Source: Candidatus Microgenomates bacterium
GTDB lineage: Bacteria; Patescibacteriota; Microgenomatia; UBA8517; JACQJR01
Length of the DNA stretch: 64,000 nucleotides
Direction of reading: 5' to 3'
NCBI GenBank assembly: GCA_016204995.1
Contig: JACQJR010000001.1
Span: 92,548-156,547 of the forward strand
The position numbers and the translations under genes were made by a program. The stretch's first letter is position 1. Each line of letters begins with the position of its first letter. The notes below the pieces were generated by a model that saw only the letters and a program-made list of their open reading frames with translations, had not been told where the DNA came from and made no database searches. Positions 23,503 to 63,982 of this stretch are shown here, one piece after another.

Positions 23503-24141
23503 TTATACCGCTCCCTTACCTGTCAGCATAATCCAAGGACTCTTTAATAATATCACAAAATCAAGCCATAAAGATTTGCTTCTGGCATATTTGGCATCCA
23601 TCCGAATCCTTTTATCAAAATTGACTTCAGAGCGGCCGGATACTTGCCACAAACCGGTAATGCCGGGGCGGATTGAAATTACCTCTTTAACTAACTGGCT
23701 AGTTTCGGGATATTTCTTCTGCTGTTCTACTAGCTCATCTTCATAATAAGGCCGCGGCCCGATCAAACTCATTTCTCCATTTAGGACATTAAAAAGCTGC
23801 GGCAGCTCATCCAAAGAATGATGACGTAAAAAATTTCCCACCGGCGTAATTCGGGGATCATTTCTCAATTTATAGCTGGATTTTTTGTATTCATCGTATA
23901 ATTTTTTAAACTTGGGATCGTGAGTTAATAAATCATGAGCATTAGCGATCATAGAGCGAAACTTATACAACCTGAACAATTCTCCATCTTTTCCTACCCG
24001 CAAGGGTGTTTGGGCGAGTATCGGCCCCGGCGAAGTAAATTTTATTAGAAAAGCAATTAAAAGCATGAAGGGAGAAAAAATAAGGAGTAAAATAATGGCT
24101 AAAGTTACATCCAATACTCGTTTAATAGAGTCGTAAAACAT
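23503..24141 (-). CDS. Initiating polyprenyl-phosphate sugar phosphotransferase (small 'bacterial sugar transferase', WbaP/PglC-like)
   Basis: VLDVTLAIILLLIFSPFMLLIAFLIKFTSPGPILAQTPLRVGKDGELFRLYKFRSM is the hallmark of the bacterial sugar transferase family. Confidence 0.88.
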   Translation of the reverse strand: MFYDSIKRVLDVTLAIILLLIFSPFMLLIAFLIKFTSPGPILAQTPLRVGKDGELFRLYKFRSMIANAHDLLTHDPKFKKLYDEYKKSSYKLRNDPRITPVGNFLRHHSLDELPQLFNVLNGEMSLIGPRPYYEDELVEQQKKYPETSQLVKEVISIRPGITGLWQVSGRSEVNFDKRIRMDAKYARSKSLWLDFVILLKSPWIMLTGKGAV

Positions 24142-24143
24142 AT

Positions 24144-25253
24144 CTAGAGAAATTCTTCCTCTTTTTCTTTTTTCAATTTATTTACCAGTTCTTTAACTTT
24201 TTCTGTCTGATTTTTATCAGCAATTAGGATAGCATCTTTAGTCTCAATCACAATTATATCCTTTAAACCAATTGTGGCAATTAACAGCTTTTCTGTCTGT
24301 ACCAAAGAATTCTCCGTCTCTAAATTTAACCAACGGCCTCTGCCGTTTAATTTCAAAGTCACATTTCCCTGATGGTCTTTTTTACTTAAAGCCCAAACCA
24401 CTTCCCAATCCCCCACGTCATGCCAATCAAAATCAGCCGCCAGCATCAAGAAATTTTTGGCTTTTTCCGAAACTGCATAATCAATGGAAATAGTTTCTAT
24501 TGACCGATAGGTTTTGGCAATCACTTCTCGCTCGTTAGATTGACCAATGGTTTGTTCCACCATCTCCAGACCATGACCAATTTTCGGAGCGTGTTTTTTG
24601 AGAGCCGCCATTAAAGTATCTGCTCGCCAGACATAAAAATTACCGTTCCAATAATACTGACCAGAAGCAGTAAATTTTTTGGCCAGAGTCAAGGGTGGTT
24701 TCTCTATAAACTTATCTACTCGGTAAACTGCCTTACCATCTATTCTATGTTCTATTTTGCCAGTTTTAATATGGCCCATGCCTACGTGAGGAAAATCCGG
24801 TTTCTTACCAATGGCTACCAACTCTTTAGTTTGATCTGCTGCTTCGGCTGCTACTTTTAAAGTATGGATGTAGGCTTCTAGGGGCTTGACTACATGATCC
24901 GATGACTCGTTAACTATCACAGCGTTGGGATCAATACTATGAATATAGGCTGCGGCCAAACCATGGGCAATCGCTGTTCCTCTAGCTTCCGGCTCTACTA
25001 AAATATGCTCCTCGCTCACTTTAGGCAATTCTTTTCTCACTTCTCGGCCGTAAAGCGGATTAGTAGTAACTATCCAAATTCTCTCCCAAGGCACTAATTC
25101 ACTAAATCTAGCAGCAGCCTGCTGTAATAAAGTTTGGTTGCCAAATAATTTAATAAATTGCTTGGGATTTTTCTTACGGGAGAGAGGCCAAAGCCTGGTA
25201 CCGCCGCCGCCGGCTAAAATGACAGCGAAAAGATGATCCTTAAGATTACTCAT
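24144..25253 (-). CDS. manC: Mannose-1-phosphate guanylyltransferase (nucleotidyltransferase only, no PMI domain)
   Basis: AVILAGGGGTRLWPLSRKKNPKQF signature of GDP-mannose pyrophosphorylase. Confidence 0.8.
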   Translation of the reverse strand: MSNLKDHLFAVILAGGGGTRLWPLSRKKNPKQFIKLFGNQTLLQQAAARFSELVPWERIWIVTTNPLYGREVRKELPKVSEEHILVEPEARGTAIAHGLAAAYIHSIDPNAVIVNESSDHVVKPLEAYIHTLKVAAEAADQTKELVAIGKKPDFPHVGMGHIKTGKIEHRIDGKAVYRVDKFIEKPPLTLAKKFTASGQYYWNGNFYVWRADTLMAALKKHAPKIGHGLEMVEQTIGQSNEREVIAKTYRSIETISIDYAVSEKAKNFLMLAADFDWHDVGDWEVVWALSKKDHQGNVTLKLNGRGRWLNLETENSLVQTEKLLIATIGLKDIIVIETKDAILIADKNQTEKVKELVNKLKKEKEEEFL

Positions 25254-26343
25254 TAATTAGTCTTTTAAATTTTTGCACAAACATTCTTTGCGAAAATCTT
25301 CTCGTATGGGCCTGAATAATTTTAACATCATAATTTTCTCTCTTAAAATTTTTGATTGTGCGCGCTAAACTCTCCACAGTTTGCTCTGTAAAAAATTCTC
25401 CGGTTTTCCCGGCTACTACCGTTTCTAAGGCTCCGCCGCCTTTATAGGCAATGACTGGCGTACCGCACATCTGCGCCTCAACGGCCACTATACCAAAATC
25501 TTCCTCTTGGGGGAAGATTAAAACCTGTGCCTTTTTATAGTACGCAACAAGTTCACTATCTGTCAAATGACCGGCAAAGTAAATATTGTTCTTGGCCATT
25601 TTTGATAATTTTCTATATTGGCTGCCTGTTCCCACAATTACCAGAGGCCAACCTAATTTATTAAAAGTTTTAACCACCAAATCTATTCTTTTATAAGATA
25701 CGAGTCGAGAAACCACTAAGAAATAGTTTTTAGATTTTAGATTTTGGATTTTAGATTTCTTACTAAACTCTAAGCTCAAACCTCTAACATCTAAATTCAC
25801 CGGCGGGTACACCACCTTTGACTTGCGTCCATAGTATTTATCTACTCTATTTCGCACCGCCTCGGAAATCGCCACCATCTCATCCGGCCTTTGCGCCGCC
25901 ATCTTATCCCAACTTTTTAGATATGAAAGCAGCCATTTGATGAAGAAACGCTTGATTCTATTGTGGAAATAAATTTCGTGTCCGCTCCATAGATATCTGG
26001 TGGGGGTCAAACAATAACAAATATGGCGGGTGCCGGGGTGAGTAATAATTCCCTTGGCCGCCTCACTGGTAACGGAAATTACTAAGTCATATTCAGAGAA
26101 ATCAAATTGTTCAAAGGCCAGGGGCATCAGCAGAGCTAGCCATTCATGATGTTCCCGAATCAAAGGAATTTTTTGTAAAAATGAAGTATAAACCTGCGGA
26201 AAAACTTGCGCCCACGGTGCATATTTGGCAGAATAAACCGAGGTATAAAGCGGAGCCTTAGGAAATATGTCATGTAGGGCCAGTAATACTCTTTCAGCAC
26301 CACCCCACTTATTCACCCGATCATAAACAATCGCAACTTTCAT
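25246..26343 (-). CDS. Glycosyltransferase family 4 (GT-B)
   Basis: C-terminal EDFGIVAVEAQMCGTPVIAYKGGGALETV (E-x7-E region). Contains an in-frame tandem heptamer repeat at 25731-25759. Confidence 0.85.
   Translation of the reverse strand: MKVAIVYDRVNKWGGAERVLLALHDIFPKAPLYTSVYSAKYAPWAQVFPQVYTSFLQKIPLIREHHEWLALLMPLAFEQFDFSEYDLVISVTSEAAKGIITHPGTRHICYCLTPTRYLWSGHEIYFHNRIKRFFIKWLLSYLKSWDKMAAQRPDEMVAISEAVRNRVDKYYGRKSKVVYPPVNLDVRGLSLEFSKKSKIQNLKSKNYFLVVSRLVSYKRIDLVVKTFNKLGWPLVIVGTGSQYRKLSKMAKNNIYFAGHLTDSELVAYYKKAQVLIFPQEEDFGIVAVEAQMCGTPVIAYKGGGALETVVAGKTGEFFTEQTVESLARTIKNFKRENYDVKIIQAHTRRFSQRMFVQKFKRLINE
25731..25759. repeat. Tandem heptamer repeat (TAGATTTT/AGATTTT/GGATTTT/AGATTT) in-frame inside the GT4 gene
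   Basis: tagattttagattttggattttagatttc. Minus-strand translation gives KIQNLKSKN in the inter-domain linker. Confidence 0.6.
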
Positions 26344-27449
26344 TCATTTGCCACTTTATTGTAGGTTGATAAAGTTTCTTGAACCATTTTCTTCCAACTA
26401 AAACTGGCAGCTCTTTTATAACCCAATCTAATTTTTTGGGCAAGGAGTTTTTTGTTTGATAAAGTTTCCTTAATAACTTTTGCTATATCTGCCGGATCGT
26501 TTTGATTAAAAAAAGTGGCAGCTTCGCCGTAGACTTCATGAAAGACTGGGATGTCAGAAACTATCACTGGACAGCCCAAATTCATCGCCTCCAGTGGCGG
26601 GATACCAAAGCCTTCCATTCGCGAAGCAGTCACTGAAGCGGAAGCAAAATAATACCAGGCACCAATTTGATTGTTATCCACTGCCCCTATTATTTCTACC
26701 TTATCCTGTAAATTTTGCTTTTTAACAAACTCCTCTATTTTAGGATAGAAAAATTTATCGCTGCCCACTAGCACTAATTTAAAATTAGGAATATCCTTCA
26801 TTGCCAAAACTAGACTTTCTACATTTTTATGCGGATGAACATTACCCACATATAAAATATAAGGCGCGAGCTTTTTCATTTGATTAAATTGACTCCCGGT
26901 AAACTTTTTTCTGATATCATCAATTTCTCCAGACTCATAAGTGACCACGATTTTATTTGGATCTACCGAGTAATGATCAACAATTTCACTTTTAGCGTCA
27001 TTGGATAAAGTAAAAATAGTGCGGGCGCGTCTAGTGGCAATCCATAACACGACGTGATATCCCAGTCTTTTAATTAAATAAAACCAATACGGGAGTGTAG
27101 AAGCTTTGCCAGTTTTATAATGGTCAAAAATTAAATCGTGAATTGTCACCACAAATTTTTTAGGATAAAAAATAGGGAAAGAAAAATAGGGAAAATGCAG
27201 TAAGTCTAAATTTTCGCGGTTAAAAACTTGCGGCAGATAAACTTGCTCAGCTAAAGTATGCCAATGAATATTAGTTTCAACTTTGCGCCACTTGGAATTA
27301 GGCATTTCTAAAGTGTCAAATTCCTGCTTTCCTAAAAACCAGACATATTCATTTTCTTGATCCAGTTCGGGTAGATATTTAAATAAACTCCTAATATACC
27401 GTCCCACCCCCGTCTCATTCCATAATCTACCATCAATACCAATCCGCAT
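26340..27449 (-). CDS. Glycosyltransferase family 4 (GT-B)
   Basis: EGFGIPPLEAMNLGCPVIVSDIPVFHEV motif. Confidence 0.85.
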   Translation of the reverse strand: MRIGIDGRLWNETGVGRYIRSLFKYLPELDQENEYVWFLGKQEFDTLEMPNSKWRKVETNIHWHTLAEQVYLPQVFNRENLDLLHFPYFSFPIFYPKKFVVTIHDLIFDHYKTGKASTLPYWFYLIKRLGYHVVLWIATRRARTIFTLSNDAKSEIVDHYSVDPNKIVVTYESGEIDDIRKKFTGSQFNQMKKLAPYILYVGNVHPHKNVESLVLAMKDIPNFKLVLVGSDKFFYPKIEEFVKKQNLQDKVEIIGAVDNNQIGAWYYFASASVTASRMEGFGIPPLEAMNLGCPVIVSDIPVFHEVYGEAATFFNQNDPADIAKVIKETLSNKKLLAQKIRLGYKRAASFSWKKMVQETLSTYNKVANE

Positions 27450-27607: not shown

Positions 27608-27611
27608 ATGA

Positions 27612-28448
27612 GTGGTGGAAGAAACAACTAAAATAGCTGTTTTCAAAGGCAAAGAAATTAGGAAAACTATTTATAAAAATGAATGGTGGTTTTCCATTGT
27701 TGATATTGTTGAAGCGTTAACCGGAACAGATAGACCAAGAAAATACTGGAGTGATCTCAAAAAAAAGTTACTTAAAGAAGGTTATGCTGAAGTGTCCGAA
27801 AAAATCGGACAGTTGAAGTTAGAAGCCCCTGATGGAAAGTTAAGAGAAACAGACTGTGCTAATACCGAGACTATATTTAGAATAATTCAAACTATTCCCT
27901 CACCTAAGGCTGAACCATTTAAGAGGTGGTTAGCAAGAGTGGGTTACGAGAGAATCCGAGAAATAGAAGATCCGGAGCTAGCCACTAAAAGAACCAGGGC
28001 GTTATATAAAGCCAAGGGATATTCTGATGCTTGGATTGAAAAACGAATGAGGGGAATTGAAATAAGGGAAACTTTAACTGATGAATGGAAAAAACGAAAA
28101 GTAGGCGGAGAAACAGAATATGCCATATTAACTGCTGAAATATCCAAAGCTACCTTTGGAATGACACCCAGCCAGTATAAAAAGTTTAAGAATCTAAAAA
28201 GAGAAAATTTAAGAGACCATATGAACGACCTTGAATTAATTTTCTCCATGCTTGGAGAAGCCTCAACAACAGAGATAGCTAAAAATAAGGATGCTCAAAG
28301 ATTTGTCCAAAATAAAAAAGCTGCGCAAGAAGGGGGAACTGTGGCAGGCAACGCTAGAAAAGAGCTGGAAAAAAGAAGCGGTCAAAAGGTTTCTATCAAA
28401 CAAAACTACCTTACCAAACCACAAAGTAGTAGATTACTAGAAAAGTAA
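27612..28448 (+). CDS. Bro-N domain protein, DinD (DNA-damage-inducible protein D)-like
   Basis: N-terminal IAVFKGKEIRKTIYKNEWWFSIVDIVEALTGTDRPRKYWSDLKKKL fits the Bro-N consensus. About 278 aa, like E. coli DinD. The only plus-strand gene in a long minus-strand run. GTG start in the track; start uncertain. Confidence 0.6.
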   Translation: MVEETTKIAVFKGKEIRKTIYKNEWWFSIVDIVEALTGTDRPRKYWSDLKKKLLKEGYAEVSEKIGQLKLEAPDGKLRETDCANTETIFRIIQTIPSPKAEPFKRWLARVGYERIREIEDPELATKRTRALYKAKGYSDAWIEKRMRGIEIRETLTDEWKKRKVGGETEYAILTAEISKATFGMTPSQYKKFKNLKRENLRDHMNDLELIFSMLGEASTTEIAKNKDAQRFVQNKKAAQEGGTVAGNARKELEKRSGQKVSIKQNYLTKPQSSRLLEK

Positions 28449-28464
28449 GACTAAACCTTAAAAA

Positions 28465-28851
28465 CTACTTTCTTATCAAAGGTATAGCTTCTTTGGGAAT
28501 TTTGCGCACTTTAATAGTTTTCATTCCTAGTTGTTTAGCTTTAACTAAACGATGTAGTCCATCCAATAATAGCCATCTATTCTTCCAAAACATAATATCT
28601 AATGGATATGAAAGATCAGACTTCATTGTTCTGTCAAATTCTTCTTTATACCCTTTTGGATTTGCCAAGACTTCATTAGGAGTTAAATCGTAAAATCCTC
28701 CTGGTTTATCCCAAAAGGGAATATCAAAATGCCATTCAAGTTCGGAAATATCCATTTCTTCTACTGGCAAATCCAATGCCCAAACTTTTTCCTCACTCCA
28801 ATGAAAATCAAATCCTACTTCTTCAATTATTTTTGGCAATTTTTTATCCAT
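28465..28851 (-). CDS. ParB/sulfiredoxin-like nuclease-domain protein (hypothetical)
   Basis: C-terminal LLDGLHRLVKAKQLGMKTIKVRKIP resembles the ParB N-terminal domain DGxHR...G...IP motif. 128 aa; convergent with the Bro-N gene. Confidence 0.45.
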   Translation of the reverse strand: MDKKLPKIIEEVGFDFHWSEEKVWALDLPVEEMDISELEWHFDIPFWDKPGGFYDLTPNEVLANPKGYKEEFDRTMKSDLSYPLDIMFWKNRWLLLDGLHRLVKAKQLGMKTIKVRKIPKEAIPLIRK

Positions 28852-28894: not shown

Positions 28895-29791
28895 TCACCA
28901 AAACAGTAATCTGTATTTCTCTAGAATCCAGATACCGGTCCAGACTAGCCAAAGAATTGGGGCAGGGTATTGGCCGACATAATGCTTTTTATAAAAAATC
29001 CGCATGGCTTCTACTGATGCCAAAGCTGCTCTTCCTCGTGTACCACGAGTAGCAGATGAAACTGATTTTGTCTGTTTTTTGACCCCGGAGGAAATGCCTC
29101 GGTAATGTAAAATAGACACTGTTGGCACATACATAATTTTCCAGTTAGATTTTTTTAAACGATAGCAAAAATCTAAATCTTCTCCATACCAAAAATAATC
29201 CTCATCCCACCAACCAACCTGCTCGCCCGCCTCGCGTCTAACTATCATAAAAGCACCGGTTAGGGCATCAATTTCATGAATATTATGGCGGCTCATATAG
29301 CCAAGAGTGTAGCCGGAAAAAAGCCGCGACTTGGGGAATAAATTTTCTAAACCAAAAAAGTGGCAGAAAGCGTTCCAGGGGGTGGGGAAACCACGATGAG
29401 CTCCATCATCTAAACCGCCGCCAGGAGCATTAACTTGACAGGTGGCCGCCCCCACTTCACTGTTTTCATCCATAAATTTAATCATGGAAACAAAAGTATT
29501 TTTTTCTACCTCTGTATCAGGATTTAAAAATAAAATATAACGGCCTTTAGCTCCTGGAATTGCTACATTATTCCCTTTCGCAAATCCAAGATTATTTTTA
29601 TTCTCTATAATTTTGAACTTTTCACTTTGCACTTTTAACTCTTCTATCGATCCATCAGTTGAGGCGTTATCAGAAACAATTATCTCCCAGGAATATTTTC
29701 CAGCTACTGATCTTTTAATTGATTGAAGACATTTAATAATAAAATCTTTAGCATTATAATTAAGAATAATAATTGATAGGTCAATACTCAC
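28895..29791 (-). CDS. Glycosyltransferase family 2 (GT-A)
   Basis: LSIIILNYNAKDFIIKCLQSI...IIVSDNASTDGS with DxD-type motifs. Confidence 0.85.
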   Translation of the reverse strand: MSIDLSIIILNYNAKDFIIKCLQSIKRSVAGKYSWEIIVSDNASTDGSIEELKVQSEKFKIIENKNNLGFAKGNNVAIPGAKGRYILFLNPDTEVEKNTFVSMIKFMDENSEVGAATCQVNAPGGGLDDGAHRGFPTPWNAFCHFFGLENLFPKSRLFSGYTLGYMSRHNIHEIDALTGAFMIVRREAGEQVGWWDEDYFWYGEDLDFCYRLKKSNWKIMYVPTVSILHYRGISSGVKKQTKSVSSATRGTRGRAALASVEAMRIFYKKHYVGQYPAPILWLVWTGIWILEKYRLLFW

Positions 29792-30983
29792 CGCCCACCT
29801 CCCGATAAATATTATCTAAATGTTCGGCAATTTTAGTCCAATTATATTTTTCTTCAAATAGGCGACGCGCAGAACTGGTTATATTGGCATAAAACTTTTT
29901 ATCTTTTATTAAACTAATTGCGGCTTTGGCCATTTCTTCCGGTGCGTCTCTGACTAACACTTCCTGATTATTCTCTGCCGAAATCCCTTCAATGCCGATA
30001 GAAGTCGTGACTACCGGCACACCAGCCGCCATCGCCCCTAAAATTTTTAAGCGCGTTCCCCCTGGACCAGCCAACGGAGCCACGAAAATAGTCGCATTTC
30101 CATAAGCGCGCCTGACACCATCGATGTCCGATGATTTTAATTCATGGATTTCTATGCCATTACCAGCCAAATCACCGATTTTTTCCTTCACTCCTTGTCC
30201 CACGATCCAACAAACTGCCTCTGGAATTTCTTTCTTAATTAAAGGAAAAATATCTTTAGCTAAAATTTTGGCGGCTTCGGTATTTTGCAACCAATTAAAG
30301 TTGCCTTGATAAAGAATAATTGGAGTGGTAATTGATCTTCTCTTGCCCCATAAATTTACCAGATCTTCACCGGCGCCATTAGGAACAATATCCACATGTA
30401 AATTAGGAACTAGGGACAGCATTTTAGCTTTATCTGATTCTGACATGGCGATGACTCTTTTGGCCTTTTTCCAAAACCTTGATTCCCAAAACTTCAACTT
30501 GAAAACATCCAGATATAAAAATGGCTTTAAGGGAAAGATGCGAAAACTGTCTAAATAATGTTGATAGACTTGATACTCAATGGTTTGTTCAACCAAAAGT
30601 ATCGGCACCGTAGTTTTAGGAATATTAGTCATCACATAAAAAGTTTCCGAATGAATTAAATCATAGGGTTGTTTTTTTAATTCCTCTTTGACTGCCCGCC
30701 GAAAACTGGGTAAAAGATAAATTGCTACTAAAAAGGGGTAGGGAGTAGCACCGGATAGCAAAACATTAATCATTGACCAAGCTCTTCTTCTTTTAAAAAC
30801 CTTAACTTCTTTACAATATTTTGTGAGCTCTGCCACATATTTTTTCTCTGCTTCATCCCTGATATAGCAAAAAAGAGTAATGTCATGTTTTTTATAAAGC
30901 TGCTTGATTAAATTATAGGAACGGACCTGCCCGCCGGAAGAAGGCGGATAAGGCAGATAAGGAGTGAGCATTAAGATACGCAT
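29781..30983 (-). CDS. Glycosyltransferase family 4 (GT-B)
   Basis: MRILMLTPYLPYPPSSGGQVRSYNLIKQL N-terminal GT4 signature and a C-terminal GT-B domain. Confidence 0.85.
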   Translation of the reverse strand: MRILMLTPYLPYPPSSGGQVRSYNLIKQLYKKHDITLFCYIRDEAEKKYVAELTKYCKEVKVFKRRRAWSMINVLLSGATPYPFLVAIYLLPSFRRAVKEELKKQPYDLIHSETFYVMTNIPKTTVPILLVEQTIEYQVYQHYLDSFRIFPLKPFLYLDVFKLKFWESRFWKKAKRVIAMSESDKAKMLSLVPNLHVDIVPNGAGEDLVNLWGKRRSITTPIILYQGNFNWLQNTEAAKILAKDIFPLIKKEIPEAVCWIVGQGVKEKIGDLAGNGIEIHELKSSDIDGVRRAYGNATIFVAPLAGPGGTRLKILGAMAAGVPVVTTSIGIEGISAENNQEVLVRDAPEEMAKAAISLIKDKKFYANITSSARRLFEEKYNWTKIAEHLDNIYREVGGEY

Positions 30984-30987: not shown

Positions 30988-31078
30988 AATTGACCTAATT
31001 AACCTAATTTCTAATTGACCTAAAATTTGTACATTGGGATTTGATTAGAAATTAGAACAATTAGTAATTAGAATAATT
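30988..31078. repeat. AT-rich intergenic inverted-repeat element (copy 4)
   Basis: taattgacctaattaacctaatttctaattgacctaaaatttgtacattgggatttgattagaaattagaacaattagtaattagaat. Confidence 0.6.
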
Positions 31079-52695: not shown

Positions 52696-53042
52696 GCTCT
52701 TTTGCTGCGTTTAAGTAAATTAGTAATAGCATCTTTTCTAATTAATTGAGTTAGTTTTTGATTGACTTCTTCTAGAGCGGAAAAAAGCTTAAAAATCAGA
52801 TAAAAAATAATAATCACTGACAGATAAAGCCCCAAGTCAACTCCCCTGCTGACACCAAAAAAATGGGCGATATTGGAAAGAAGCTGCTGCTGATAGATAA
52901 AAAATAATAATACCAGCCAAAATAACAGCCATAAAAACGTAAATACTTTTGTCAGTTTACCTTTTCGGTAAGTCGCGAAAGTCCGATGAATTATGAAAAC
53001 AATGATGGCGGTGAGAATAATCTGGGCTGATTGCATAATCAA
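52692..53042 (-). CDS. Small 3-4 TM membrane protein, DUF2304-like, partner of the upstream polyprenyl-P-sugar synthase
   Basis: 116 aa. Translationally coupled to the GT2 (4-nt overlap), resembling DUF2304 proteins that accompany GtrB/DPM1-like GT2 enzymes. Confidence 0.45.
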   Translation of the reverse strand: MIMQSAQIILTAIIVFIIHRTFATYRKGKLTKVFTFLWLLFWLVLLFFIYQQQLLSNIAHFFGVSRGVDLGLYLSVIIIFYLIFKLFSALEEVNQKLTQLIRKDAITNLLKRSKRA

Positions 53043-53704: not shown

Positions 53705-53705
53705 G

Positions 53706-54716: not shown

Positions 54717-54767
54717 AAATCACTTTTAAGCATTATATATGATAATATCTAAAATGTAATTATTAAA

Positions 54768-56138: not shown

Positions 56139-56760
56139 TTTAGAGAAAATTTGGCAACAAGTACCGCCGGATTATTATGAGAAAGGCGTGACAGAAAATA
56201 TTTTACAATGGTGGTGGCACGGACAAAAAATAAATACCTTCCAGAAATTAGTTGACAAAAAAAATCCCCCAAACATTCTAGATGTAGGTTGTGCCGGCGG
56301 CATGATGACTTATAAGATCTCCCAGCTTCTACCGGCTAGTCAAATTACAGGAATTGATGTATATGACAAAGCCATTCAACATGCCAAAAAAAAATATCCT
56401 CGCCTTAAATTTATCGTTTGCGATGCACATCGTTTACCTTTTAAGGATAATACATTTGATTTAGTCATCTGCTACGAAACCATAGAACATGTGGTAAAAC
56501 CGGAAACAGTTTTAAGTGAAATTAGAAGGGTGATGAAAAAAAATGGCATCGCCATTGTCACTATGGATTCCGGCAGTCTGTTATTTAGAATCGTCTGGTG
56601 GTTTTGGGAAAGAACTCGCGGTAAGGTTTGGCAAGGGGCTCATCTTCATCCTTTTCATCACCAAGAGTTGGGACAATTAATTAAAAAGACTAAATTTAAA
56701 ATTCTGCAGAAGCATTTTTCTCATCTAGGAATGGAGGTTTCCTTTATCCTAACTAAATGA
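56122..56760 (+). CDS. Class I SAM-dependent methyltransferase
   Basis: ILDVGCAGGMMTYKISQLL (motif I), FDLVICYETIEHV. Confidence 0.8.
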   Translation: MLKTNDLEKIWQQVPPDYYEKGVTENILQWWWHGQKINTFQKLVDKKNPPNILDVGCAGGMMTYKISQLLPASQITGIDVYDKAIQHAKKKYPRLKFIVCDAHRLPFKDNTFDLVICYETIEHVVKPETVLSEIRRVMKKNGIAIVTMDSGSLLFRIVWWFWERTRGKVWQGAHLHPFHHQELGQLIKKTKFKILQKHFSHLGMEVSFILTK

Positions 56761-56763
56761 AGA

Positions 56764-58473
56764 TTACTTTTCAATTAAATAGTTTTCCAACACTAAAGCA
56801 TCTAGGCCGCTTTTCATGAAAGTGCCATAAGCTTCCATGCTCGTATTAACAATCGGCTCTCCCTTTAAATTAAAAGAGGTATCTAATAATACCGGCACGC
56901 CCGTAGCATTACCAAAACTTTTAACCAAATTGTAATATTGAGGTTGAATTTCTCTCTTAATAAATTGAGGGCGAGCTGTCCCATCTACATGAGTGATTGC
57001 TCCTAGTTTTGGCTGCCACTCTTTTCTGACTGGCACCACCGCTAACATGTATTCCAAAAGTGGTGAAGGTTGACCATTACCAATGTCAAAGAATTTTTTA
57101 CCTTGATCGTACAATACTACAGGAGCAAATGGACGGAAAGCCTCTCGGAATTTAATTTTAGCATTGACTAAATCTCTCATTTTTTTATCTCTCGGGTCAG
57201 CCAAAATACTTCTGGCCCCTAGAGCCCTAGGCCCCCATTCAAACCTGCCTTTGACCCAACCAATTACCTTCTTCTTGGTTAACATATTGACCAAACGTTC
57301 CTCTAACTGTTTATCGCTCAAATGTTTGGCTTTGATATTATTCTCTTGTAAAAATTTATTAATATCTTTCTCATTATTTTCTTCTCCCCAAAAGACATGC
57401 TGAAATCTCCACTTTCTAGGTTTATTAAAGACATGGTGATAAACATATAAAGCCGCGCCCAATGCTCCCCCTGAATCACCGGCGGCCGGATGAACAAAAA
57501 CATTTTTGAATCCCGCTTCGCGAAATATCCGCCAGTTAGCTACGCCATTTAAGGCGACTCCGCCGGCAAGGCATAAATTATCCTCGCCGGTTTTTTGATA
57601 AACGATTTTGGCAATAACTAATAATTTTTCTTCTAGAACTTTTTGAGCGCTGGCTGCAATATCAGCATATATTTGACTCACTTGATCTGTTTTACGAGGC
57701 TCTTGAGGATCAACCCCAAATAATTTAATAAATTTATCATTAAAGCTGACTTTATCGGAGAGATGAAAATTGAAATAATTAAGATTTAACTGGAAGGAAC
57801 CATCGGTTGATTGGTGAATTAGTTTTTCCACTTTATCTATATATTTAGGCTGCCCATACGGAGAAAGCCCCATCACTTTATATTCACCTTCATTAATTTC
57901 AAAACCTAAAAATTGCGTAAAAACACTATAAAATAAACCCAGGGAATGCGGAAATCTAATCTCTTGATTTAAAAATAATTTATTACCGCGAGCTCTCCCC
58001 CAAGTGGTAGTAGTCCATTCACCCACTCCGTCGCTAGTTATTATGGCTGATGATTCAAATGGCGAGGTATAAAAAGAACTGGCAGCATGTGATAGATGAT
58101 GACCGGAAAAGATTATTTTTTTACTAGAAATTTTTAGGTGTTTGGCGATTAGAGCTTTAATCCATAATTTATCTTTCAACCAGACTTTATAAGCGTTAAC
58201 GAATGACTCGCGAGAACGGGGAGCGGTTGCTAGAAATGACAAAGTTAAACGCTCAAACTTTAGAAAAGGTTTCTCATAAAAAACTACCCAATCAATATCC
58301 TGGCTTTTGATATTTGCTTTTCTTAAACAAAAATCTATAGCATGTTTAGGAAAACCAGAATCATGTTTTTTGCGGGAAAATCTTTCCTCTTCGGCGGCGG
58401 CAATAATTACTCCATTATCAATTAAAGCAGCGGCGGCATCGTGATAAAAACATGCTATACCTAAAATTTTCAC
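56764..58473 (-). CDS. NodU/CmcH-family O-carbamoyltransferase
   Basis: MKILGIACFYHDAAAALIDNGVIIAAAEEERFSRKKHDSGFP (Carbam_trans_N). The C-terminal domain carries a GPRALGARSILAD motif. Confidence 0.88.
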   Translation of the reverse strand: MKILGIACFYHDAAAALIDNGVIIAAAEEERFSRKKHDSGFPKHAIDFCLRKANIKSQDIDWVVFYEKPFLKFERLTLSFLATAPRSRESFVNAYKVWLKDKLWIKALIAKHLKISSKKIIFSGHHLSHAASSFYTSPFESSAIITSDGVGEWTTTTWGRARGNKLFLNQEIRFPHSLGLFYSVFTQFLGFEINEGEYKVMGLSPYGQPKYIDKVEKLIHQSTDGSFQLNLNYFNFHLSDKVSFNDKFIKLFGVDPQEPRKTDQVSQIYADIAASAQKVLEEKLLVIAKIVYQKTGEDNLCLAGGVALNGVANWRIFREAGFKNVFVHPAAGDSGGALGAALYVYHHVFNKPRKWRFQHVFWGEENNEKDINKFLQENNIKAKHLSDKQLEERLVNMLTKKKVIGWVKGRFEWGPRALGARSILADPRDKKMRDLVNAKIKFREAFRPFAPVVLYDQGKKFFDIGNGQPSPLLEYMLAVVPVRKEWQPKLGAITHVDGTARPQFIKREIQPQYYNLVKSFGNATGVPVLLDTSFNLKGEPIVNTSMEAYGTFMKSGLDALVLENYLIEK

Positions 58474-58682
58474 TGTAGTTTTAGCTTCTCTAAAAAGGAA
58501 GTGTTATCTTCCATTTTTTTCCAAGTTGGGAAATTCTTAGTGTCTAAAAAATCTTTGAATAAACTGGCTATGAAACCTAAAGGAGAAATTAAGACAAAAT
58601 AGATTAAGGAAAAAATTAATAAGATTTGAAGATTACCAATTTTCTCTGCAACAATTTTCCATTTTTCCCACAAATTTTTCAT
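58470..58682 (-). CDS. Small membrane protein co-transcribed with the carbamoyltransferase
   Basis: 70 aa, one TM helix. Stop overlaps the carbamoyltransferase start by 4 nt. Confidence 0.4.
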   Translation of the reverse strand: MKNLWEKWKIVAEKIGNLQILLIFSLIYFVLISPLGFIASLFKDFLDTKNFPTWKKMEDNTSFLEKLKLQ

Positions 58683-58692
58683 AGATTAAAGT

Positions 58693-58890
58693 CTAAAAAA
58701 GCGGATATACAAGAGGGGCCAGGGGGGAGGAACCGACGAAAAGAATTAATATACCTATAATCATAAAAACTGCTACCATTGGAATTAGCCACCATAATTT
58801 TTGCTTCCATAAAAAGGAAAAAAGCTCTTTCAAAATACTAAATCGCTCCAAGATTTCCATTTTCCAAATAGTATTTTGAGTATAACACAA
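58693..58890 (-). CDS. Small membrane protein (hypothetical)
   Basis: 65 aa, one C-terminal TM helix (LWWLIPMVAVFMIIGILILFV). Confidence 0.35.
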   Translation of the reverse strand: MCYTQNTIWKMEILERFSILKELFSFLWKQKLWWLIPMVAVFMIIGILILFVGSSPLAPLVYPLF

Positions 58891-58915
58891 CTAAAATTAA
58901 TTACACAATAGATAT

Positions 58916-60103
58916 TTAAATTATTTTAAGGCTATCTTTTAACTGATCTAAAGAATCATTATTTAAAAATTCAGATTTATCAATTCCGCTAAAATCAAAA
59001 TTATTAATATCACTTTTGCCATTACTGGCTACGTAGCTAACTAAATCATGCAAAAGACGATTTTTAGCAGCAATTAATACCTTTCCAAAACCTTCATCAC
59101 AAGATATCTTTGGCTTCCAACCAAGTTTGGAGATTAATTGAATATCAGAATAGCGATGAGTTACCCCTACTGGTTTATCCACTAAAGGCTTAATTTCAGG
59201 TTTATAACCTTCAAGGCTAGAAAATACTTCCAAAACCTCCAAAAATGACAAAATTTTTCCTGAACCAATATTACAACCAGAACCATCATGAATCTTGTCC
59301 ATAATTATAAAAAAAGCATCTATGCAATCATCAATATGAATAAAATCCCTTCCTTGTTTACCTGTTCCCCAAACAGTTAAAGGGTTTTCTCTCAAAGCTA
59401 CTCGGCGAGCGATAGCAGGAATAGGATAAGATAAATCCTGGTCTTCACCATAACCGGAGAAAGGCCGGACACAAGCAATGGATAAACCATATCTACCAGC
59501 TGCTAGTCTACTTAAATATTCACCAGTTAATTTGCTCCATCCATAAGTCATATCTGGCAAACCAAATTTCTCGCTGAAATTGATCATCGCCTCTTGTAAG
59601 GCAATATGTTTTTTGTTATTTTGAATATGGATAGGATAGGCAGCGCTGGAACTTGCATAAAGAATCCTTTTAATTCTTTTCACTCTTCTAGTAGCCCAAA
59701 GAAAGAATAAAGAATCAATTGCCAAATCTTTGGCTACCAGTATTGGATCTCCATCTATAATCGCCCTTCCACCAACAATTGAAGCCAAATGAAAAACATC
59801 AGAAAAATCAGGCAAAAGATTATTAAACTTGATATCTTCTGTTAAAGCGTTAATAACGTCATCGTTAACAAAAAATATCCTTTGTTCATCACTTTGATAA
59901 CAAATTATTTTATCTTTATTAGTTTGTTTTTTAAATTTTTTATCAAGCCAAATATCCGGATGCTTACCAGTAAATAAATTATCAATAATCCATATATCAG
60001 ATCCTTGGGGTATTAATTTATTTATTAGATGTCTACCAACAAAACCACATCCACCAGTCACTAAAAAAGGTAATTTATTAATTTTAGGACTATTACTTGT
60101 CAT
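58916..60103 (-). CDS. NAD-dependent sugar-nucleotide epimerase/dehydratase (extended SDR)
   Basis: FLVTGGCGFVGRHLINKL Rossmann motif and YGWSKLTGE YxxxK. 395 aa with a C-terminal extension. Confidence 0.8.
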   Translation of the reverse strand: MTSNSPKINKLPFLVTGGCGFVGRHLINKLIPQGSDIWIIDNLFTGKHPDIWLDKKFKKQTNKDKIICYQSDEQRIFFVNDDVINALTEDIKFNNLLPDFSDVFHLASIVGGRAIIDGDPILVAKDLAIDSLFFLWATRRVKRIKRILYASSSAAYPIHIQNNKKHIALQEAMINFSEKFGLPDMTYGWSKLTGEYLSRLAAGRYGLSIACVRPFSGYGEDQDLSYPIPAIARRVALRENPLTVWGTGKQGRDFIHIDDCIDAFFIIMDKIHDGSGCNIGSGKILSFLEVLEVFSSLEGYKPEIKPLVDKPVGVTHRYSDIQLISKLGWKPKISCDEGFGKVLIAAKNRLLHDLVSYVASNGKSDINNFDFSGIDKSEFLNNDSLDQLKDSLKII

Positions 60104-60107
60104 TTAT

Positions 60108-61106
60108 TTACTTATTTAGCAAATCGTCAATTTCACAAGCCCAAGCAGTAACAATTGGTAACTCTTCCTTGGGAAAGAATTTTTCTTTGACTAATACCCT
60201 ATAAACTTTTAACAACGACTCCAAAGGGTCTTTATACAAAGAGGTAGCGTCTAAAATATCAATTAGTTTTTTAGTATTTAAAAAAAGCGGTACCTCTAAT
60301 TTAAAATCGTCCAGATAGTTGTGCGGATTACGATTACTGGTATAAGCAGTAGGATAAGTAAATACCACTTTAGCATCCATCTCCCATAAAATTCTTTGGG
60401 CAATATATCCCCTGATAATGTCTTCAACATGAAAACCAGAAGTCGCTGGCAAATAAAGCAAGGGGTAGGCCATCGGATGAGTAAAAGTATTTTGAGTATT
60501 CATCGGCGCATAACTACCTTTTCCTAAAGCATAATTACCCGTAGGTTTCAATTCTAACCAATGGTTATAAAGGAAACGATAAATAGCATCAAAATCGCTA
60601 TCTTTATCCTGTACTGAATTTTGCATAGGAGAAATAACTTTTTCTTTCTTCTGTTTTATTCCTTCTTGATCTTTAATAAATTCTAAAGGGAAACCTCGTA
60701 CCCAAACAGGATTTTCCACATGGTTTTTTAAGAAATATTGGTAGACATTAATAAATTTCTTACCAGATAAAGTGGTTACTTTTTTTTCTAAACTAACATC
60801 GGGTGGATAATTTTTATCGGGAAACATATCATCATCACTTTCACCTATCACCTTTGCTCCATTTTTAATAGCGTATAAATAACCTAAATTTTTCCTAGCA
60901 TACATTTTCCAAGGGAAAAATTTAGAAAATGTGGGGAATAATTTATCCTGCATTTCCGGAGACAAATAATCTACATTTTCAACAGACCAATTGAGAGGAG
61001 TTTTAGTATCACCAACACAAATTAACTTCCAATCTGGAATTTGGGCAAACTTATATATTTCTTCTTTGGGAGGATTAATTGTCGTGATGATAATCACTTT
61101 GTCCAT
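60108..61106 (-). CDS. DUF288/STELLO-like putative glycosyltransferase (hypothetical)
   Basis: VIIITTINPPKEEI ... MYARKNLGYLYAIKNGAKVIGESDDD resembles STELLO/DUF288 (GT75-like) proteins. Family name is from memory. Confidence 0.35.
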   Translation of the reverse strand: MDKVIIITTINPPKEEIYKFAQIPDWKLICVGDTKTPLNWSVENVDYLSPEMQDKLFPTFSKFFPWKMYARKNLGYLYAIKNGAKVIGESDDDMFPDKNYPPDVSLEKKVTTLSGKKFINVYQYFLKNHVENPVWVRGFPLEFIKDQEGIKQKKEKVISPMQNSVQDKDSDFDAIYRFLYNHWLELKPTGNYALGKGSYAPMNTQNTFTHPMAYPLLYLPATSGFHVEDIIRGYIAQRILWEMDAKVVFTYPTAYTSNRNPHNYLDDFKLEVPLFLNTKKLIDILDATSLYKDPLESLLKVYRVLVKEKFFPKEELPIVTAWACEIDDLLNK

Positions 61107-61178
61107 ACATTACCCAAGCTGCTTTAAGTTTCACATATTATAAAGAGCCATCATAATAAAGCAATAGTGAATTTTACT

Positions 61179-62105
61179 TCAATTTTTGCTAAAACCAATC
61201 TTTTCTTCAATAATATATTTGGGCCGATTTTTTACCTCATCATATATCCTAGCTAAGTATTCACCTAATATTCCTAAAGTAATAAGCTGAATTCCACCCA
61301 CCAGGAGTATAGTGGACATAGTAGAAGCCCAACCGGCAATACCAAAACCAAAAAATATTCTTAAGATAAAAACACCAATAATAGAAATAAAGGCCACCAG
61401 GGCGCAGATAAATCCCAAAAAACTAGCCAGCCTTAATGGTAGATAAGAGAAAGAAATGACCCCATCTAAGGCAAGTTTTATTAATCTTCTTATGCTGGCT
61501 TGTTGGCCACTACTTCTTTTCCCACGCTCGTAAACTACACCTACTTGGGTAAAACCTGTCCAAGCCCTTAAACCACTTAAGTATTTATTTCTCTCGGGTA
61601 AATTAGTCAATATTTTTACTACCCTTTGGCTCATTAAAGAAAAGGTACCAGCATCCAGGGGCATTTTATAAATGGAAACCATATTTAATAATCGATAAAA
61701 AATTGTAAATAAAAATCTTCTTAATAGGCTTTCCTTTCTCTTTTGTTTAACACCATACACTACCTCAAAACCTTCTTTAGCTTTAGCAACCATTTGAGGA
61801 ATTATTTCTGGAGGATCTTGTAGATCAGCGTCCATTAAAACAACCCAATCGCCTTTAGCATGAATTAGACCAGCATCAATGGCTGGCATATGCCCGAAGT
61901 TTCTAGAAAAAGATATTAATCTAATCTTTTTATCCCTACCTCTTAATTTTTTTATTACTCCTAGGGTATTATCTATACTACCGTCATTAATAAAAATTAT
62001 TTCGTGATCACGACCTACCTTTCTTAGAACTGGTTTTAATCTTTGATAAAGTAGTGGCAAATTTTTTTCCTCGTTAAAAGCTGGTATTACCAAGCTAATT
62101 TTCAT
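61179..62105 (-). CDS. Polyprenyl-phosphate glycosyltransferase (GT2, ArnC/GtrB-like, with C-terminal TM helices)
   Basis: ISLVIPAFNEEKNLPLLYQRL...IIFINDGSIDNT...MDADLQDPPE, two C-terminal TM helices. Confidence 0.85.
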   Translation of the reverse strand: MKISLVIPAFNEEKNLPLLYQRLKPVLRKVGRDHEIIFINDGSIDNTLGVIKKLRGRDKKIRLISFSRNFGHMPAIDAGLIHAKGDWVVLMDADLQDPPEIIPQMVAKAKEGFEVVYGVKQKRKESLLRRFLFTIFYRLLNMVSIYKMPLDAGTFSLMSQRVVKILTNLPERNKYLSGLRAWTGFTQVGVVYERGKRSSGQQASIRRLIKLALDGVISFSYLPLRLASFLGFICALVAFISIIGVFILRIFFGFGIAGWASTMSTILLVGGIQLITLGILGEYLARIYDEVKNRPKYIIEEKIGFSKN

Positions 62106-62176
62106 GCTTTGTCAATACTATGCTCACTCTCAACTTTTGTCAACGATTCTTAAATTATTGCGTCTCATAATATATA

Positions 62177-62833
62177 ATGTCTTACATGACCGCTGATTCT
62201 GTTAAAAAAACTATCTATTTGTATTCTGGGCTGGGCTGGAAAAGTATCTTTGCAAAGGTACGATTTTGGGATGCTCCTTATGTAGAGGTAGAAAAAATCG
62301 TTCCTAAAAAGGGAACCATTACTGATTTGGGGTGTGGGGATGGAATATTCACCAATTTCTTAGCCCTTACTTCCCCTAAGAGAAAACTAACTGGAATAGA
62401 TATAGACAGCAAAAGATTGACTGCAGCTGATAAAGGGTTAAAAAACGTTCAATTTAAACTGGCTGATGCTAATAAGGTTAATCTCCCTAAAAGTGATGCT
62501 GTTATTCTTTTTCATTTATTGCACCATCTTAAATCGCAAGAACTGCAGACAGAAGTGTTAAGAAAATGCATTGATAGTTTAAGAAAAAATGGCAAAATAA
62601 TAATTATAGAAATTGATGTGAAATTTAGTTTTAAATATTTCTTAACTTTGTTCACTGACCACTTAATTGTACCGTGGTTTTTTGACAATAAGTTATACGA
62701 GCCAAAGATTTTTTTCCGTCATACAAAAGAGTGGTTAATATTATTAAATGATCTGGGTCTCTCTTGTAAAGTAATAATGGCTGAAGAAAATAAACCATTC
62801 ACCCACATTATTTTTAATTGTCATAAGAGATAA
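62177..62833 (+). CDS. Class I SAM-dependent methyltransferase
   Basis: TITDLGCGDGIFTNFLA (motif I), AVILFHLLHHL. Confidence 0.7.
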   Translation: MSYMTADSVKKTIYLYSGLGWKSIFAKVRFWDAPYVEVEKIVPKKGTITDLGCGDGIFTNFLALTSPKRKLTGIDIDSKRLTAADKGLKNVQFKLADANKVNLPKSDAVILFHLLHHLKSQELQTEVLRKCIDSLRKNGKIIIIEIDVKFSFKYFLTLFTDHLIVPWFFDNKLYEPKIFFRHTKEWLILLNDLGLSCKVIMAEENKPFTHIIFNCHKR

Positions 62834-62845
62834 TCTTAATAATCA

Positions 62846-63982
62846 CTAAGATTTTGTTAAAGATTTAAGTAAAGCTGGGGTTAGTTGGCCTGGATAATAT
62901 TTTCTTAATTTTTCAGAATGATCATAAATTTCATAGGTATGAGGATCTTGAGTAAATAAATAAACTTCTTGTTTTTCAGGCTGATATTTTTCTAATAATT
63001 TAATAAATTCGCCTGCGTCATTTTGGATATAAATTGGCTCTCTAATACGGTAAAGCTCATAAAATTCGTAAATATAACGAGATAGAATCTCCGATGGCGG
63101 AGAAGCATATATCACTTTGAGTTTCCCATTTCCCGGTAAAAGATGCATTAATTGCGGATTAGAAGCCCGTTCGGGAGCAGAATATATCTTGGCCCATTCA
63201 GTATCACTGTGCAACATCGTCAAAGAGTTAACCAAAATAAGAATTATGAGTAACCTCTGAAAAATTTTATATTTGATAACCAAACTTAGTCCTAAAAGGA
63301 TAATCATCATTCCAAAGGTGGCTGATAAACCATAAGAAGTGGGGGCAATAGGGAAAGTGTCATTGTATTGGGAAGTCAAAGGTTGAATACTTTGCACCAT
63401 CCGAATACCGGATAAAGTTGGTCCTATCATGGAAATTATCAGCATTACTTCACCTATTACAATTAGCTTTGCTGCAAGAAATCTTTTCTCTTTCAAAAGC
63501 CAAACAATTAATCCCACTAATCCCAAAACTACAACCCCACCTAAAATAGAAGAAATATAAAAAGCTTGAGGAAACCATGATCTTAAAGTATTAATGAGGG
63601 GATAAGCTAAGGCGTGTGGTAGGCTAACGGCAAATATGCTATCGGCTAGCCTTACTAAATGAGGCCAATTGCTTAATAAATTACTATAATTTATTACCTG
63701 AGGCCTCATCGCCACCAAAACAGGCCAGTAAAGAAAAAATATTAAAGGAAAAGCTAGTAGGGTTAGAACCCACTCCCATCTCTGACTTTTAATTTTTGCC
63801 ACCAACAATATGCTTATTAGTAATAGTGGAATAGCAATATAATGGAGCCGCGACAGACCAAATTCCAAAGCTGCAGCATAAAAGATAATAGCACCTAAAT
63901 AAAATTTAGAAACTAATAAATAAATTGCCAAAGAAAAGAGCAATAAGGAGAAACCATCACCGATATATTCTTGCATTTGCAA
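62846..63982 (-). CDS. Polytopic membrane protein (hypothetical; start may lie beyond 63982)
   Basis: At least 10 predicted TM helices and a C-terminal soluble segment. No catalytic motif recognised. Confidence 0.4.
   Translation of the reverse strand: MQMQEYIGDGFSLLLFSLAIYLLVSKFYLGAIIFYAAALEFGLSRLHYIAIPLLLISILLVAKIKSQRWEWVLTLLAFPLIFFLYWPVLVAMRPQVINYSNLLSNWPHLVRLADSIFAVSLPHALAYPLINTLRSWFPQAFYISSILGGVVVLGLVGLIVWLLKEKRFLAAKLIVIGEVMLIISMIGPTLSGIRMVQSIQPLTSQYNDTFPIAPTSYGLSATFGMMIILLGLSLVIKYKIFQRLLIILILVNSLTMLHSDTEWAKIYSAPERASNPQLMHLLPGNGKLKVIYASPPSEILSRYIYEFYELYRIREPIYIQNDAGEFIKLLEKYQPEKQEVYLFTQDPHTYEIYDHSEKLRKYYPGQLTPALLKSLTKS

Follow-up and report, generated by a model that had tools for sequence, protein, structure and literature searches.

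The question raised by the locus described here is what a bacterium of the Candidate Phyla Radiation (CPR, or Patescibacteria) builds with more than 40 kb of glycan genes. The locus lies in a 64 kb stretch of a Candidatus Microgenomates genome (64,000 nucleotides, referred to in what follows as the window), within which all annotation scans were carried out, and it continues beyond the window end. Because these bacteria are largely uncultivated, next to nothing is known of what their cell envelope is made of. An earlier note on this DNA had listed the enzymes encoded and had treated the locus as one unusual cluster specific to this genome. Comparison of related loci leads to a different picture: the locus is a lineage-conserved superoperon for an envelope glycan, rich in membrane glycosyltransferases (GTs) of the GT-C class, to which a variable decoration arm is attached.

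Conserved Core and Variable Arm

Every protein of the window was mapped by tblastn onto 48 loci from species-representative genomes that surround homologs of an 857-aa GT-C protein (gene at 45880, product identical to NCBI HY404_00770, on a contig of 609,565 bp), onto 80 metagenome loci that surround homologs of a protein with a Wzy_C domain (32545-33939) and onto one extra Blackburnbacteria locus. Full-flank subsets of 26 loci centered on the 857-aa gene and 18 loci centered on the Wzy_C gene were used for counting, and denominators of 26 and 18 in the text and in Table 1 refer to these. Perfect collinearity with the window was found for 99 of the 108 loci that hold at least four core genes. 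The core genes occur in 25-26 of the 26 loci of the first subset and in 14-18 of the 18 loci of the second, with amino-acid identities of 35-70%.

In its first half the conserved order runs from the genes for a tRNA synthetase and RecO through DUF4012, the initiating phosphoglycosyltransferase (PGT), ManC, GT4, GT4, GT2, GT4, GT-C(500), Wzy_C, GT2, a conserved protein of 185 aa and an acetyltransferase, where numbers in parentheses give protein lengths in residues. The second half comprises GT4, GT4, GT-C(452), a transmembrane (TM)-anchored GT2, GT4, GT-C(477), a methyltransferase, GT2, Wzx, GT-C(857), DUF5667 and, on the opposite strand, GT-C(650). Woesebacteria, Daviesbacteria, Blackburnbacteria and further Microgenomates share this order, which is seen in genomes as well as in metagenome contigs. 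Positions 21408-51125 thus hold a superoperon of 25 genes, five of them for GT-C proteins, that is found throughout the lineage, and the DUF4012 gene at 21408 is the logical start of the locus. At 51115 a variable decoration arm begins, which adds three GT-C genes inside the window and a fourth outside it and extends at least 2 kb past the window end. The operon-like packing, the conserved and collinear core and the variable arm are direct observations. Nearly all genes lie on one strand and overlap or are separated by less than 170 bp. Because a gene order of ∼30 kb is common to many related lineages, and is kept at such modest ortholog identity, the core probably builds a structural core glycan of the envelope and not a strain-specific coat.

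The arm behaves differently. Among the 26 full-flank loci the 526-aa GT-C and the DUF2304 protein are each found beside the core in 1 locus, the 456-aa GT-C in 4 and the carbamoyltransferase in 5. Where arm genes are present they travel as modules; a GT2, DUF2304 and GT-C set occurs in one related locus (L017), and the pair of 456-aa GT-C and methyltransferase genes recurs beside the core in two others (L006 and L038).

In a separate observation on the related loci, many of the TPA-assembled metagenome-assembled genomes that carry the locus (L003-L050) are titled 'uncultured Gammaproteobacteria bacterium', which looks like a placeholder or a mislabel.

Enzyme Inventory

All 37 open reading frames (ORFs) of at least 100 aa in 23503-63982 were run against Pfam, with NCBIfam added where useful, and enzyme families were assigned from Pfam, NCBIfam and PDB sequence searches. 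The inventory of the earlier note was borne out almost item by item. The initiating PGT, ManC, GalE and the extended short-chain dehydrogenase/reductase (SDR) are all matched by family profiles, and the ∼12 GT2/GT4 enzymes that had been counted correspond to 6 GT4 and 6 GT2 proteins; the Wzx flippase, the Wzy/WaaL-like protein, the hexapeptide acetyltransferase, three S-adenosylmethionine (SAM) methyltransferases, the NodU-type carbamoyltransferase and the STELLO-like protein were found as well. Both the initiating PGT and the MOP-family flippase of a Wzx/Wzy pathway are in place (scores in Table 1), and a PGT/Wzx/Wzy_C route does stand alongside synthase and GT-C modules.

The two polyprenyl-phosphate-sugar synthases named in the note were recovered with full-length matches, both in the variable arm. 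The protein at 53039-53704 matches mycobacterial PpgS (E 1e-50). It has no TM segment and its gene adjoins that of a DUF2304 protein (78 bits, 3 TM segments), convergent with the gene for the 526-aa GT-C. The protein at 61179-62105 matches Synechocystis GtrB (5EKP, E 5e-74) and also ArnC, its best NCBIfam match being PgfS (E 5e-77). GacJ and Rv3632 are DUF2304 activators of the synthases GacI and PpgS, which feed the GT-C enzyme GacL (bioRxiv 10.1101/180810), and as judged by sequence the 53039/52692 pair reproduces this synthase-activator arrangement of GacI/GacJ and PpgS/Rv3632. No GtrA-family flippase was detected among the ORFs of at least 100 aa; the DUF2304 protein is the sole small membrane protein, an activator and not a flippase. 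The suggestion of several independent three-component systems, each with synthase, flippase and GT-C, therefore holds for the variable arm only, since the core has no recognizable synthase, no GtrA flippase was detected and two clear synthases would have to serve eight or nine GT-C enzymes.

Among the remaining arm proteins GalE scores 331 bits against an equivalog cutoff of 262, the carbamoyltransferase has two domains (294 and 220 bits) with NodU as its best NCBIfam match, and the STELLO-like match is weak (29.6 bits, cutoff 27.8).

GT-C Transferases

All eight GT-C candidates of the window are polytopic, with 7-10 TM segments each by hydropathy prediction. The PMT_2 threshold is passed by the proteins at 38364, 51115 and 54768, the last of which also passes the TMEM260-like model. 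For the protein at 31068 the PMT_2 score is 24.6 bits, against a cutoff of 26.1, and of its orthologs that were scanned 25 of 25 match PMT_2 and 15 of 25 match PMT in addition. The protein at 41518 has no Pfam match itself; most of the homologs that are 45-57% identical to it have PMT_2 or GT87 matches, and one bears the name of a GT39-family protein.

A comparison of folds was required, because PDB searches with single sequences and with profiles gave nothing significant for the 857-aa, 650-aa, Wzy_C or 576-aa families. The 857-aa family is essentially without Pfam coverage. An AlphaFold2 model built with 29 homologs (pLDDT 85.7, pTM 0.82) predicts a fold that resembles AftD and a CBM6/35-like ectodomain, a feature of the model that leans toward a glycan acceptor; PimE, AftA, AftB and AftD are among the GT-C fold matches obtained in the locus. 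A remote relationship links the 650-aa protein to the 857-aa family (hhalign probability 97.2%, E 3e-11), and a minority of the 650-aa homologs match YfhO (PF09586), PTPS_related (PF10131) or DUF6541 (PF20176). The note had called two proteins YfhO-like. This is right for the architecture, in which an N-terminal GT-C membrane domain is followed by a large ectodomain that ends in a TM segment at the C-terminus, but neither the 857-aa nor the 650-aa protein matches the YfhO Pfam model even at E ≤ 1.

The last ORF, at 62846, has a frame that is open to the window edge and was listed with 378 aa from a TTG start. A Logan contig that is 100% identical to window positions 46764-64000 and reaches 2,010 bp further (L001) gives the real gene, of 576 aa (L001:1435-3165). 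It is followed by a tandem paralog that is 50% identical, has at least 478 aa and is itself cut by the contig end; with this ninth member there are nine GT-C genes in ∼45 kb. The 576-aa family is very rare (26 cluster representatives among 1.84 billion proteins) and has no Pfam match. In hhalign comparisons the 477-aa family scores a probability of 88.9%, the 650-aa family 20% and the 857-aa family 2%, and the assignment to GT-C is settled by structure, through the model of a 48%-identical member (pLDDT 86.7).

The acidic residue of the first external loop was checked in five of the families. Invariant positions are D34 of the 857-aa family, D43 and D51 of the 500-aa family, D46 of the 477-aa family, where E29 is at least 90% conserved, and D106 of the 576-aa family; the 650-aa family has D37, with at least 90% conservation. 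The five aligned families thus keep an invariant or near-invariant acidic residue at this place. Reassignment of the candidates to transporters, which the earlier note had set as the outcome that would undo its reading, did not come about. Seven to nine GT-C transferases had been anticipated, and the eight in the window are established as such by profiles, homologs, hhalign comparisons and models. From their sequences the GT-C proteins are predicted to use sugar donors linked to polyprenyl phosphate or diphosphate on the outside of the membrane. The family assignments and the GT-C folds are, like the gene order, demonstrated.

Proposed Assembly of the Envelope Glycan and Alternatives

In the explanation that we prefer, with a probability that we put at roughly 0.6, the region is a two-layer assembly line for an envelope glycan, and its product is most likely a cell-wall glycopolymer whose structure is conserved. 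In the scheme that follows we infer in what order the steps occur, which sugars are used, what donor serves the core GT-C enzymes and what the acceptor is. In the core, GDP-mannose would be supplied by ManC and the WbaP-type PGT would begin the glycan on undecaprenyl phosphate, after which six GT4 and three or four GT2 enzymes (about ten in all) would lengthen it on the cytoplasmic face, GDP-mannose being among the donors, with modification by the WcaF-type O-acetyltransferase and a methyltransferase. Export would depend on the sole Wzx-type flippase, and the Wzy_C protein would either polymerize the glycan or ligate it to an acceptor. The five core GT-C enzymes, three of them GT39/83-like and two large and YfhO-like, would add sugars on the outer face from lipid-phosphate-linked donors, and the DUF4012, 185-aa and DUF5667 proteins may serve as accessory envelope factors. 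The arm might then provide a side chain of N-acetylhexosamine or Gal type through GalE, the PpgS-like GT2/DUF2304 pair and the 526-aa GT-C, while the GtrB/PgfS-like synthase and the remaining GT-C enzymes would contribute additional sugars, with O-carbamoyl and O-methyl groups added. By analogy, the product would be the Microgenomates functional counterpart of teichoic acid, rhamnose polysaccharide or arabinogalactan. A structural envelope polymer is favored because of the deep conservation, the resemblance to AftD and the CBM-like domain of the 857-aa enzyme.

A number of observations weigh against a wall glycopolymer. No polyprenyl-phosphate sugar synthase is evident in the core, where the TM-anchored GT2 is closest to chondroitin synthase, so that the five core GT-C enzymes would need donors made by the variable arm or by enzymes encoded elsewhere in the genome. 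No Pfam domain of a Wzz/PCP chain-length regulator or of an LCP wall ligase was found in ORFs of at least 100 aa between 20 and 64 kb, and attachment of the product to peptidoglycan is for this reason only putative. The Wzy_C domain is also found in protein O-oligosaccharyltransferases, and the PMT_2, PMT and TMEM260-like matches together with the similarity to PgfS would fit protein O-glycosylation equally well. General O-glycosylation of S-layer, pilin or other surface proteins is in fact a rival that we regard as unlikely, yet deserving of serious attention. The PGT and the GT4/GT2 enzymes would in this case make a lipid-linked oligosaccharide, which the Wzy_C protein would transfer en bloc to Ser/Thr once Wzx had flipped it, as in PglL/PilO/WsaB-type systems, and the GT39-like GT-C enzymes would be protein O-mannosyl- or hexosyltransferases like those of Actinobacteria (PMT) or Streptococcus mutans (PgfM1/M2). 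It would account for the missing ligase and chain-length regulator, for the five GT-C proteins with PMT_2, PMT or TMEM260-like matches and for the fact that PgfS, the best NCBIfam match of the GtrB-like enzyme, is part of a protein-glycosylation system. The T/P-rich linkers that the earlier note had pointed to in envelope proteins of the nearby dcw region, and had proposed to follow up, are also in its favor. Two such proteins, 3837-4580 and 4564-5538, were found, with linkers such as PSTPEPIYTNTPEPTSTSTSTSTPS, and they are the only window ORFs of at least 90 aa that reach at least 9 Thr/Pro per 15 residues; on sequence grounds both are candidate O-glycosylation substrates. Protein O-glycosylation is made less attractive by the 857-aa GT-C, with its CBM6/35-like domain and its likeness to AftD, which has a polysaccharide as its substrate, and by a conserved block that has no target protein gene embedded in it. 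A further point is that the Wzy_C protein has an invariant Asp, D368, at the position of the His that is conserved in WaaL/PglL. Ten cytoplasmic GTs and five conserved GT-C enzymes are, moreover, many for a typical O-glycan, although long S-layer glycans exist. As a side observation, one of the two T/P-rich linker proteins has a CAP domain.

A membrane-anchored lipoglycan of the lipomannan or lipoarabinomannan (LAM) type, in which the GT4 enzymes and GDP-mannose build a lipid-linked mannan inside, GT-C enzymes extend or branch it outside after flipping and the product stays lipid-anchored, strikes us as improbable. The PGT/Wzx/Wzy_C set, with a PGT of WbaP type, indicates an undecaprenyl-diphosphate route and not a phosphatidylinositol or glycolipid anchor, and the core yielded no match to a polyprenyl-phosphate mannose synthase of Ppm1 type. 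These points outweigh a conserved ManC that adjoins six GT4 enzymes, GT-C fold matches to PimE, AftA, AftB and AftD, a PpgS/Rv3632-like module as in the modification of mycobacterial arabinogalactan and a locus without a wall ligase. Finally, the content of the locus (PGT, GTs, Wzx, Wzy, acetyl- and methyltransferases) is that of an ordinary strain-variable locus for a capsule, an exopolysaccharide or an O-antigen-type glycan, here merely large, and the lower GC content of the distal half and the presence of a phage-derived insert would be in keeping with such a locus. Hypervariability is what defines capsule and O-antigen loci, and a 25-gene core that stays collinear in several candidate phyla or orders shows the reverse, variable behavior being confined to the right arm; a variable capsule locus has very little chance of being the right description, and for the core it was rejected on the collinearity data.

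Returning to the wall glycopolymer, a more specific proposal can be made, one that we hold tentatively and at slightly less than even odds: the 25-gene block would be the locus for an undescribed signature envelope polymer of the Microgenomates, assembled by way of the 857-aa and 650-aa GT-C families that have no Pfam models, with the arm diversifying the polymer between species. Such diversification is plausibly tied to host attachment or phage evasion. Full-text literature searches returned no paper describing the locus. DUF4012 is enriched in the CPR, with no role assigned, and many Microgenomates-enriched families are hypothetical membrane proteins (PMC6744442). The core occupies ∼30 kb in genomes of ∼0.8-1.1 Mb, a size range taken from complete Woesebacteria chromosomes. 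It offers concrete targets for study in the two uncharacterized GT-C families, the Wzy_C variant, DUF4012 and the conserved 185-aa protein, and, since a variable decoration arm adjoins a core that is conserved, the locus is a natural example for how episymbionts vary their surface.

Gene-Level Observations and Surroundings

Table 1. Features of the glycan locus, in window coordinates; fractions give the related loci in which a gene was found.
Feature	Coordinates	Strand	Evidence and occurrence
DUF4012 bitopic envelope protein (676 aa)	21408-23438	-	Pfam DUF4012, 81 bits; 17/18 full-flank Wzy_C-centered loci; distal end of conserved locus
Small initiating PGT (Bac_transf; matches WbaP/EPS-type C-terminal domain)	23503-24141	-	Bac_transf, 204 bits; 17/18
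ManC, mannose-1-phosphate guanylyltransferase; guanylyltransferase part only, no PMI domain	24144-25253	-	16/18
Two cytoplasmic GT4 (365 and 369 aa; starts 25246 and 26340)	25246-27449	-	17/18 and 18/18
Two-gene insert, outside the pathway: Bro-N/phrog_15286 gene (27612-28448, +) and 128-aa phrog_17560 gene (28465-28851, -)	27612-28851		
GT2 (298 aa, 28895) and GT4 (400 aa, stp1-like, 29781)	28895-30983	-	14/18 and 18/18
GT-C no. 1 (500 aa, GT39/83-like)	31068-32570	-	∼10 predicted TM segments; 18/18
Wzy_C-domain protein (polymerase, ligase or O-oligosaccharyltransferase)	32545-33939	-	Pfam Wzy_C, 47 bits
GT2 (309 aa, 33914), conserved 185-aa protein (two predicted TM segments) and WcaF-type hexapeptide O-acetyltransferase (35363-35965)	33914-35965	-	14/18, 18/18 and 18/18
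Two paralogous GT4 (386 and 370 aa; starts 36132 and 37289)	36132-38401	-	Kept in related loci
GT-C no. 2 (452 aa)	38364-39722	-	PMT_2, 39 bits; 25/26
TM-anchored GT2 (∼280 aa, 39719) and short GT4 (313 aa, 40563)	39719-41504	-	25/26 each
GT-C no. 3 (477 aa)	41518-42951	-	Homologs with PMT_2 or GT87; 26/26
SAM methyltransferase with N-terminal zinc ribbon (279 aa, 42944) and GT2 (298 aa, 43780)	42944-44676	-	26/26 each
Wzx/MOP flippase (423 aa, ∼11 predicted TM segments)	44598-45869	-	Polysacc_synt, 76 bits; 26/26
GT-C no. 4 (857 aa), Microgenomates family without Pfam model; GT-C membrane domain, CBM6/35-like ectodomain, C-terminal TM segment	45880-48453	-	
Membrane-anchored DUF5667 protein (177 aa), flanked by the genes of both large GT-C proteins	48620-49153	-	Recognizable in 8/48 loci, also in L051; short, divergent
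GT-C no. 5 (650 aa, YfhO-like architecture); end of conserved core	49173-51125	+	Divergent; beside 857-aa homolog in 16/26
Variable module 1: GT-C no. 6 (526 aa, +), DUF2304 (52692-53042), PpgS-like GT2 (221 aa, 53039-53704), GalE (53706-54716)	51115-54716		
Variable module 2: GT-C no. 7 (456 aa) and methyltransferase (212 aa, 56122)	54768-56760	+	PMT_2 and TMEM260-like (GT-C)
Variable module 3: carbamoyltransferase (56764-58473), extended SDR (395 aa, 58916-60103), STELLO-like (60108-61106), GtrB/PgfS-type synthase (308 aa, 61179-62105)	56764-62105	-	
Third SAM methyltransferase (218 aa)	62177-62833	+	Pfam
GT-C no. 8, cut by window end	62846-64000	-	True gene 576 aa

The Wzy_C protein has at least 481 relatives in metagenomes, and the profile of its family matches no PDB sequence. 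In the family alignment (A4) there is an invariant loop, GTGYSSITLATDNDYLRLLGEVG, with an invariant Asp, D368; it resembles the loop motif of WaaL, H-N-x9-G-x2-G, in which a His stands at the position equivalent to D368. For the TM-anchored GT2 at 39719 the family profile matches chondroitin synthase best (E 3e-35), matches to DPMS, GtrB and ArnC being restricted to the N-terminus, and the protein was dropped as a candidate for the polyprenyl-phosphate sugar synthase of the core since chondroitin synthase fits far better. The GT2 at 43780 gave a weak SunS match alone. The TTG starts listed for these two genes (at 40654 for 39719-40654, and that of 43780-44676) are probably too far upstream. 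Orthologs of the TM-anchored GT2 have ∼275-285 aa, as compared with the 311 aa listed, and with a shorter start its 92-nt overlap with the upstream GT4 gene disappears; the 79-nt overlap of the GT2 at 43780 with Wzx is a similar case. The GT4 at 40563-41504 (313 aa) is shorter by ∼40 residues of the N-terminal domain than its Blackburnbacteria ortholog (357 aa, 41% identity), with the frame intact.

The insert at 27612-28851 separates a GT4 gene from a GT2 gene of the conserved operon and is absent from all 128 related loci. For the Bro-N protein the match to phrog_15286 is full-length (E 2.5e-91), and searches for repeats and tRNA genes around the insert revealed no att-like flanking repeats and no tRNA. 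As judged from these sequence matches the two genes are phage-derived and specific to the window. A stretch of the 128-aa phrog_17560 protein was read as a ParB-like 'DGLHR' motif. The gene at 20650-21408, between RecO and DUF4012, encodes a protein with a staphylococcal-nuclease domain that, among PHROG families, matches a phage nuclease best (E 1.7e-34). None of the related loci showed the gene at this position, and it may be a second small insertion.

Upstream of the locus lies a dcw/peptidoglycan cluster (RsmH, a penicillin-binding protein, Mur ligases, MurA, MraY and MurD), separated from the PGT gene at 23503 by genes for a class II tRNA synthetase, RecO, the staphylococcal-type nuclease and the DUF4012 protein, and the minus strand carries nearly everything from 51 kb down to 0.2 kb. 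Three ORFs in or beside the dcw cluster are without a Pfam match, 1627-3228 (533 aa), 3232-3786 (184 aa) and 17659-18384 (241 aa), the last being without a PHROG match too. In the distal core and the variable arm (38000-64000) the GC content declines to 0.30-0.34, from ∼0.40, a change that may come from the composition of membrane-protein genes or from a separate history of the arm.

Comparison with Known Systems

Among the closest parallels are the streptococcal gac loci for a rhamnose cell-wall polysaccharide, the Group A carbohydrate (gacA-L, with GacI, GacJ, GacK and GacL). They are conserved wall-polysaccharide operons, as the present locus probably is, with a GT2 plus DUF2304 synthase for a polyprenyl-phosphate HexNAc, a Wzx-type protein and a side chain added outside by a GT-C enzyme; the counterparts here are 53039, 52692 and 51115, and the Wzx protein at 44598. 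In contrast to gac, the present locus has neither rhamnose pathway genes nor an ABC exporter, its PGT is of WbaP type and not GacO/WecA, it encodes a Wzy_C protein and, where gac has a single GT-C protein, eight or nine of them, carbamoyl- and methyltransferases are included and the host belongs to the CPR. The mycobacterial machinery for arabinogalactan and LAM (AftA-D, Emb, PimE and the PpgS-Rv3632-Rv3779 set) differs in that no decaprenyl-phosphate arabinose pathway, GlfT or WecA is found here; sequence identity to the mycobacterial enzymes is 7-13%, and the present genes form one collinear operon of 30 kb that includes Wzx and Wzy_C.

With the CsbB/GtrB-GtcA-YfhO systems of teichoic-acid glycosylation and the Gtr systems of Shigella phages the locus shares a GtrB-type synthase (61179) and the YfhO-like architecture of the large GT-C proteins, whereas no GtrA/GtcA flippase was found, the YfhO Pfam model is matched by some homologs only and the GT-C enzymes far outnumber the synthases. 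The Pgf system of S. mutans (PgfS, PgfM1, PgfE and PgfM2) and the bacterial GT39 O-mannosyltransferases are similar in having a PgfS homolog, an epimerase and PMT_2 GT-C proteins clustered together; here, unlike in Pgf, there is no adhesin or target gene in the locus, which is much larger and is coupled to PGT, Wzx and Wzy_C. S-layer glycan (slg) clusters of Geobacillus and Paenibacillus (WsaB/WsfB) resemble it in the PGT, the multiple GTs, the methyltransferase, the export function, the Wzy_C protein and the monoderm host, but they are strain-variable and without GT-C enzymes, and no S-layer gene was seen in the present locus. Relative to all of the systems compared, the locus is without GtrA, LCP and Wzz, contains two GT-C families for which there is no Pfam model, and combines, in a CPR host, the PGT/Wzx/Wzy_C set with five conserved GT-C enzymes in a single collinear operon.

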